Assembly (NCBI GenBank): GCA_044892525.1
Contig: CM097885.1
Span: forward strand, 3,660,001 to 3,724,000
Direction: 5' to 3'
DNA length: 64,000 nucleotides
Source: Schmidtea polychroa
Lineage: Eukaryota
Shown here piece by piece: positions 13,174 to 13,393 of this stretch (position 1 is the first letter of the stretch; each line of letters opens with the position of its first letter). The translations under genes were made by a program, and so were the position numbers. The notes beneath the pieces were generated by a model. It saw only the letters and a program-made list of their open reading frames with translations. It was not told the origin of the DNA and did no database searches.

Positions 13174-13393
13174 AAATGATGATTTCTTGATAGCAGCATT
13201 TATTATTTAAAACAATAAAATGATAATTTAAGCCTTTTACTCTAAATTATGTATTTAATGAAAAAATTTTCGACTATAAGATAGTCCTTGTCAATTGATT
13301 GACAAGATTGACAAGGACTATCTTATAGTCGAAATTTTTTTCATTAAATACATTATTTGCAGCAAAAGGCTTAAATTATCATTTTATTGTTTT
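13174..13393. mobile_element. Fold-back mini-element, family A (inverted PLE-like 3' ends with hammerhead motifs), within (TTA)n
   Basis: Inverted repeat 13209-13393, plus a one-sided 35-bp tail at 13174-13208. Each arm has TTGACAA-g-GACTAT-ctt-ATAGTC-GAAA. Second copy at 60137-60298. Confidence 0.75.

Follow-up and report, generated by a model that had tools for sequence, protein, structure and literature searches.

Penelope-like retrotransposons (PLEs) that bear a C-terminal GIY-YIG endonuclease (EN+ PLEs) comprise the Penelope/Poseidon, Neptune, Nematis and Hydra clades; as far as the available text of two accounts goes (PMC8557442, PMC3846280), they have a single ORF that joins a reverse transcriptase (RT) to the endonuclease, pseudo-LTRs (pLTRs), heavy 5' truncation, a head-to-head inverted truncated copy with palindromic junctions, a tail of 30-40 bp that lies over the ORF start at one end, and AT-rich or microsatellite targets. 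All of these traits recur in the element described here, family A of Schmidtea polychroa. The 5' ends of its copies also show a positional hotspot, and none was found described in the available text of those accounts. Our wider literature search, confined to freely available text, likewise found no apex or strong-stop hotspot in PLEs, although subscription papers or supplements may hold one.

Family A also carries a ribozyme motif of a known kind. In the available text of PMC4209133, the Cercyon hammerhead of Schistosoma mansoni has a U3-A8 core, an unpaired base between positions 9 and 10.1, a G10.1-C11.1 pair, a short helix I (4 bp), a palindromic 15.2-16.2 and no loop III, and family A shares each of these features; the same source describes opposite-strand hammerhead pairs about 100-700 bp apart in Schistosoma, and no mapping of apex positions was found in its text. 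Helix II of family A has 6 bp, in contrast to the 7-8 bp of the hammerheads described there, and the copies in our window differ further from Cercyon in lacking part of helix I and in carrying U17.

For the Poseidon element PAc of Anolis, the available text of an in vitro study (PMC11167929) describes a protein that cuts both strands at ATT, two internal RT starts that bound the tail, and the use of mostly uncleaved RNA as substrate. The two starts match the 3' ends of the arms described below, and the ATT preference resembles the (TTA)n target. Unlike family A, however, PAc has a C3:G8 core, and its ORF starts within stem II rather than 65 nt past the cleavage site (PMC11167929). Non-LTR retrozymes, judged from partial texts, are likewise short, lack coding capacity, are related to PLEs and carry a type I hammerhead (10.64898/2026.07.22.740005, PMC7229834). 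They form direct tandem arrays (10.64898/2026.07.22.740005), whereas the stubs described here, inverted or solo, have junctions made afresh and in many cases a broken ribozyme. How pseudo-LTRs are rebuilt, and what role the hammerhead plays in PLEs, are open questions in the available text of PMC2377424, PMC8557442 and PMC11167929.

A truncated insertion of a Penelope-like element

The window (the whole 64,000-nt stretch of S. polychroa DNA analysed) holds a head-to-head palindrome in (TTA)n with arms of 88 nt each, identical at 83 of 88 positions (Table 1). The original prediction of a palindrome in this repeat is borne out, with a total of 187 bp in place of 185 bp. Positions on the arm are counted from the A directly preceding the hammerhead core (+1, which is 13307 on the right arm). 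The tail of the left arm contains the start codon of an ORF (13199-13197) and its first codons. There is very little doubt that a young EN+ PLE, inserted head-to-head and truncated at the 5' end, gave rise to the palindrome; the kind of element, the ribozyme variant and the inverted layout are all already known.

Table 1. Coordinates of family A features in the window
Feature	Positions	Strand	Remarks
Left (TTA)n microsatellite target	12970..13173	+	Target-site duplication unreadable within repeat
PLE tail, arm positions +89..+122	13174..13207	-	Left arm only; 34 nt; compared with full-length copies L083, L084
Left arm (pLTR end, positions +1..+88)	13208..13295	-	
Left-arm minimal hammerhead	13260..13294	-	U3:A8 core, extra G, 6-bp stem II, GAAA, AAUU, U17
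Junction spacer	13296..13306	+	11 nt; duplicate of arm positions -1..+9
Right arm (pLTR end, positions +1..+88)	13307..13394	+	Without tail
Right-arm minimal hammerhead	13308..13342	+	U3:A8 core, extra G, 6-bp stem II, GAAA, AUUU, U17
Right (TTA)n microsatellite	13395..13470	+	Orientation as on left flank
Second same-family head-to-head insertion	60138..60297	.	Left arm from +12, right arm from +1

The arm is far more abundant than chance would allow: a 26-mer taken from it has 4,374 exact matches in the genome (781 Mb, AT-rich, in 1,012 contigs of which four are large), and its reversed control has 0. In longer copies the sequence upstream of the arm is a 3' UTR preceded by the end of an RT/GIY-YIG ORF; downstream, through the tail, the arm leads into the ORF start. 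The full-length copies L083 and L084 have the structure pLTR-ORF-pLTR (unit of 3,066 bp in L083), with pseudo-LTRs in partial tandem that appear as direct repeats of 219 nt (98.2%) and 278 nt (99.6%) around the ORF. This ORF starts at arm position +97 and encodes 856 aa; a coding hint in the arm itself, a short open frame upstream of the true ATG, was dropped. The protein combines an RT domain (RVT_1, residues 389-579, E 3e-14) with a C-terminal GIY-YIG endonuclease (756-790, E 1.3e-5), the single-ORF arrangement of EN+ PLEs, and its relatives, at about 40-52% identity, have the identical domain set. According to the available text of PMC8557442, EN+ PLEs are defined by the CCHH motif (two cysteines between GIY and YIG), DKG and GxKF; the family A translation has CxxC within the GIY-YIG stretch, two later histidines, DKG and GPKF. 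There are three cysteines in the RT-EN linker, by which the family would lean to a linker-bearing PLE clade; the relatives carry no clade names.

An inverted 5'-truncated copy with a tail on one side only is seen in the window, in most other pairs, and in 12 of 12 of the copies with the commonest junction (see below). The piece of the protein that includes the GIY-YIG end has 8,964 candidate matches in the genome; among the 150 that were scored, all at 95-100% identity, there are many minus/plus pairs 1-4 kb apart, which are the same fold-back with its axis inside the ORF. Target duplications of 13 bp are readable at L016 and L026. The parent of the palindrome, which the original prediction missed, is an autonomous Penelope-like retrotransposon, and this explains the palindrome, the tail and the target.

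For the second insertion in the window, placed at 60137-60298, the original prediction likewise put the axis at the 5' edge of the core. This insertion, in which no tail was seen, is not a pair of hammerheads: the left arm starts within stem II and is coreless, and on the right a C in place of G10.1 removes the first pair of stem II. Elsewhere in the genome, a long satellite with a 22-nt period, in both orientations, occupies L031:1-2151, upstream of a truncated family A copy.

The hammerhead motif

On the arm, the motif runs from U3..A9 at +2..+8 through an extra G (+9) and stem II (+10..+24) to GAAA, with U17 at +32. In intact copies stem I (-3..+1 paired with +33..+36) has 4 bp, one of them G-U, and AAUU and C17 are present. 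The full-length copies have every element of the minimal U3-A8 hammerhead of PLEs, namely the core boxes, the base between 9 and 10.1, G10.1-C11.1, the palindromic 15.2-16.2 and NUH. In both arms of the first insertion the predicted U3:A8 core is kept, as are the extra G, the 6-bp stem II and GAAA; the palindromic AAUU, also predicted for both, is present in the left arm only. Neither arm closes the core with a complete helix I. On the left, where the 3' strand of stem I is present and the 5' strand is replaced by the junction, 2 of 4 pairs are kept; on the right, where the predicted cut would fall after 13338, the residual stem I has 3 of 4. Both arms are U17, in contrast to the C17 of the full-length copies. 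With 2-3 pairs in stem I, U17, and a transcript across both arms that would form one long hairpin, the ribozymes of these two arms are probably inactive, as the 88-bp hairpin would sequester the motif. The hammerhead of intact copies is probably a weak ribozyme assisted by dimerization or by protein.

An Rfam scan of the palindrome returned no hammerhead family and three weak hairpin matches, the best of them to a miRNA model. Isolated folds of four stretches were not more stable than shuffles (z from -0.1 to -1.2, and +1.1 for a 131-nt piece), an unconstrained cofold of two copies did not produce the dimeric hammerhead, and the AAUU self-duplex alone was computed to be unstable (+2.2 kcal/mol). 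Among 95 aligned arms (of 123, after 28 truncated or diverged arms with more than 6 mismatches over -3..+36 were dropped) no compensatory change was seen in stems I or II, in a family that is young and a sample partly chosen by likeness to the window arm; the positions that commonly vary are loop II, 15.2 and 17. Better evidence that the motif is real comes from two further families of the same genome, in which the identical layout recurs with different stems. The prediction of a hammerhead-like motif with U3:A8 is upheld, and its identity as a PLE-type U3:A8 minimal hammerhead is supported.

5' ends cluster at the edge of the hammerhead

The apex distribution was drawn from k-mer counts and from the first 100 places listed in each search. 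Among the first 100 of the 4,374 listed matches there are 24 head-to-head pairs within 10.5 kb, 17 of which have a spacing of 102-151 nt and an apex centred at about -5..+20. Counts of 25-mers (up to one mismatch), which combine truncation with point variation, fall from 7,222 at +33 to 6,342 at +14, 5,324 at +1, 2,273 at -25 and 2,039 at -80; the successive losses are 12%, 16%, 57% and, over the last 55 nt, 10%, or 0.007, 0.014, 0.034 and 0.002 per nt. About 69% of arms thus stop within the hammerhead window (2,273 vs 7,222). Apexes cluster, as had been predicted, at the 5' edge of the hammerhead, where the loss is steepest. The companion claim that cleavage alone does not explain the apex also holds: counts fall by only 12% over the stretch with the predicted cleavage site (+33..+14), and ends defined by cleavage were rejected. 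Simple self-priming on the stem II hairpin was rejected as well; it predicts a spacing of about 107 nt, and the 17 short spacings, spread over 102-151, do not pile up there.

Thirty position-ordered loci resolve into 24 insertions, of which 15 end at -5..+18, 8 are long and 1 is complex. Nine of the 15 are inverted and six are solo or nearly so. Since solo copies stop at the same edge, the hotspot is one of 5' ends, whether or not fold-back follows. Most short copies, whether inverted or solo, have their 5' ends at -5..+14. The edge is hard, in that short family A copies rarely extend past -5. An extra, non-templated G at -6 is found in 21 of 85-87 rows that start at -5, and a G at -5 in 8 of 85 rows that start at -4 (Fisher p 0.013-0.014), a modest test tallied by hand on the first 100 of 375 and 100 of 132 matches, from which 13-15 and 15 point-variant rows were dropped. 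Some 70 nt upstream of -5 there is a CCAAT motif, which may have a promoter role.

Two other families of the same genome allow a comparison. Family B, a putative PLE known here from its motif and palindromes, forms a palindrome in (TAA)n at window positions 63026-63213, with its own U3:A8 minimal hammerhead and an apex at the 5' edge of the motif. It has 1,640 matches in the genome, and 9 of 10 listed pairs are short, seven centred at -12..+11 of the motif and two near +35; at the apexes, element-like sequence ends within a few bases of stem I. Family C (L084:496-735, L104), a PLE whose GIY-YIG end is seen in L104, has a canonical C3:G8 minimal hammerhead and 1,904 matches, and 0 of 21 listed pairs are below 200 nt (the shortest is 709). 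The exception is one short family C palindrome in L084, whose apex falls some 60 nt upstream of the motif. Family C has a hammerhead and no hotspot, indicating that the hammerhead as such does not make the hotspot.

Junctions of the palindromes

Microhomology of 1-2 nt is seen at the junctions, some of which also contain re-copied stretches. Spacer-like stutters are found also at L087, L092 and L095, where the first 10-13 hammerhead bases have been re-copied two to three times in tandem, in a manner that resembles template-end repeat addition. The commonest recurring junction accounts for about 17 of 100 listed rows, and the remaining junctions are mostly unique between loci. Twelve copies of the commonest one lie on G17/C32, T17/C32 and T17/T32 backgrounds, with the tail on one side in 7 and on the other in 5, and three have private stutters. 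A junction found on three or more subfamily backgrounds, and with either arm tailed, indicates that palindromes arise afresh and are not copied as units. The 3' ends of arms lie at about +88 or at +124..+130, and most pairs have one end of each kind. Whether an arm is the longer one does not predict that it bears the tail (a count by eye gave 10 vs 7 pairs in one set, and the set with the recurrent junction gave 5 vs 7). Arms of long pairs have private variants in common, suggesting one template molecule or source locus per event.

Source of the 5' edge

Taken as a whole, the explanation that we regard as probable is a truncated PLE insertion combined with run-off from an RNA 5' end at -5. The mechanism, in which an internal RT start is followed by run-off at this end and by fold-back or cDNA joining, seems to us slightly favoured. 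The element protein would cut AT-rich or (TTA)n DNA, and RT would start inside the RNA at either of two sites, at about +88 and +122..+130, that bound the tail. The RNA 5' end at -5 would most likely be a capped start site two bases ahead of stem I, so that the priming site would lie about 90-125 nt downstream of it, and the cDNA would run off uncleaved RNA, its hammerhead uncut, after about 95-135 nt. The cDNA end could then fold back, or join a second cDNA made from the other target strand, via 1-2 nt of microhomology and with occasional re-copying, which would place the palindrome apex at the 5' edge of the ribozyme, with the hammerhead carried along in the stub as a passenger.

A capped start at -5 would be the simplest source of both the edge and the extra G. 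In LINE biology, copying of the cap is a source of an extra G; our literature search found no paper supporting a cap-derived G, and the base could instead come from a slip re-copying GAG, as other re-copied stretches occur. A counterpoint to the start site comes from 11 copies picked for long open frames. In 10 of them the 5' end is visible, and it never falls at -5..+14: one copy begins at -8, one at -19, five begin further upstream and three in the tail at +89..+116. Long copies would thus require a circle, a template jump or RNA that reads through. Starts within the tail bring to mind the virilis group, in which the ORF lies between 34-bp direct repeats, according to the available text of PMC2377424.

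The edge could instead be a processed end, left where 5'-to-3' trimming halts at the hammerhead or at a bound PLE protein, with RT running off it. A start site need not lie so near stem I in two families, and yet the family A edge is 2 nt before stem I and the apex sequence of family B ends within a few bases of it. We consider this unlikely all the same, as a stem I of only 4 bp with a G-U would probably be too weak to stop a nuclease alone, the G excess at -6 fits a cap better, and the C3:G8 family has a hammerhead and no hotspot (0 of 21 listed pairs).

More doubtful is the proposal, contained in the original prediction, that RT stalls on a folded or dimeric U3:A8 hammerhead and folds back there. 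The hotspot is indeed shared by both U3:A8 families (17 of 24 listed pairs in one, 9 of 10 in the other), and within the motif arms are lost at 0.007-0.014 per nt, more than the background of 0.002. However, an RT moving 3' to 5' should stop at the 3' foot of the helices, whereas the steepest loss is at or beyond the 5' edge, where, given the direction of synthesis, RT would already have opened all helices. The hard edge at -5, the weak local fold, the solo copies that end at the same edge and the canonical-core hammerhead family without a hotspot also argue against stalling. Stalling at the ribozyme is weakly supported at best.

Splicing or trans-splicing to an acceptor at the edge (AG at -5/-4), with spliced RNA as the template, is very unlikely. 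The AG, which has a branch-like motif upstream of it, does end exactly at stem I, a geometry like that of Drosophila virilis Penelope, in which an intron ends at the 5' end of helix I (PMC4209133, available text). Against this, no constant upstream exon or leader is found in 100 of 375 or 100 of 132 listed rows, letters upstream of the edge derive from the target or from the other arm, and the spliced form of a candidate 32-nt intron was not seen.

Least probable, and nearly level with the splice acceptor at the end of a ranking that runs from the trimmed end through RT stalling, is an independently amplifying, non-autonomous short palindrome, the palindromic retrozyme of the original prediction or a MITE-like unit: short copies number in the thousands and a single junction makes up about 17 of 100 listed rows, but junctions otherwise differ by locus, the recurring one lies on at least three backgrounds with the tail on either arm and three private stutters, and direct tandem repeats each with a complete hammerhead, the monomers of non-LTR retrozymes (10.64898/2026.07.22.740005, partial text), were not found among the copies examined. 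It is possible that short RNAs from solo pLTR promoters served as templates, which would amount to the mechanism of our preferred explanation.

Implications for pseudo-LTRs and ribozyme function

Run-off at -5 lends itself to a broader and more tentative proposal, which we rate as somewhat improbable: stubs would be integrated strong-stop products, and the strength of the ribozyme would set their ratio. The RNA would begin at the first base of the hammerhead and RT would start about 90-125 nt within it; RT would then either run off the cap, giving a stub that is often folded back, or move to the 3' repeat copy, by a jump or on a ribozyme-cut circle, and so rebuild the pseudo-LTR. Weak U3:A8 cores would leave mostly uncut RNA and hence mostly stubs, and C3:G8 cores none. 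Short pairs make up 17 of 24 and 9 of 10 listed pairs in the two U3:A8 families and 0 of 21 in the C3:G8 family, a comparison of three families in which the position of the start site is a confounder. If the proposal were true, PLE hammerheads would gain a measurable job, and pseudo-LTR regeneration would be explained from genome sequence alone.

The useful part of these results is the positional signal: most stubs end just before the ribozyme, which may mark the RNA start. Thousands of 5' ends at one edge, beside a family without such a pile, make pseudo-LTR regeneration and hammerhead function testable. For annotation, we caution that the stubs can be mistaken for MITEs or microRNA hairpins.

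Other features of the window

Fragments of another PLE family, with RT matches and a protein 25% identical to that of family A, lie at 24467-30914. Two arms of this family, at 28463-29190 and 30186-30914, are inverted relative to each other, and a hammerhead-like motif with a canonical core is present at 28515 (-) and 30862 (+). A palindromic, putatively Polinton-like element of about 12 kb (47410-59522) has arms that are 97-100% complementary and long ORFs that resemble protein-primed DNA polymerase by eye; the one ORF searched had no Pfam match. Broken ORFs that resemble a DNA-transposon transposase or an LTR-type RT by eye are found at 9405-11260, 25364-27174, 45342-46208, 18142-18903, 43271-43843 and 33486-33989. 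Tandem arrays occupy 21719-21850 (22-nt units), 22753-22899 (21-nt units) and 52159-52671 (144-nt units).
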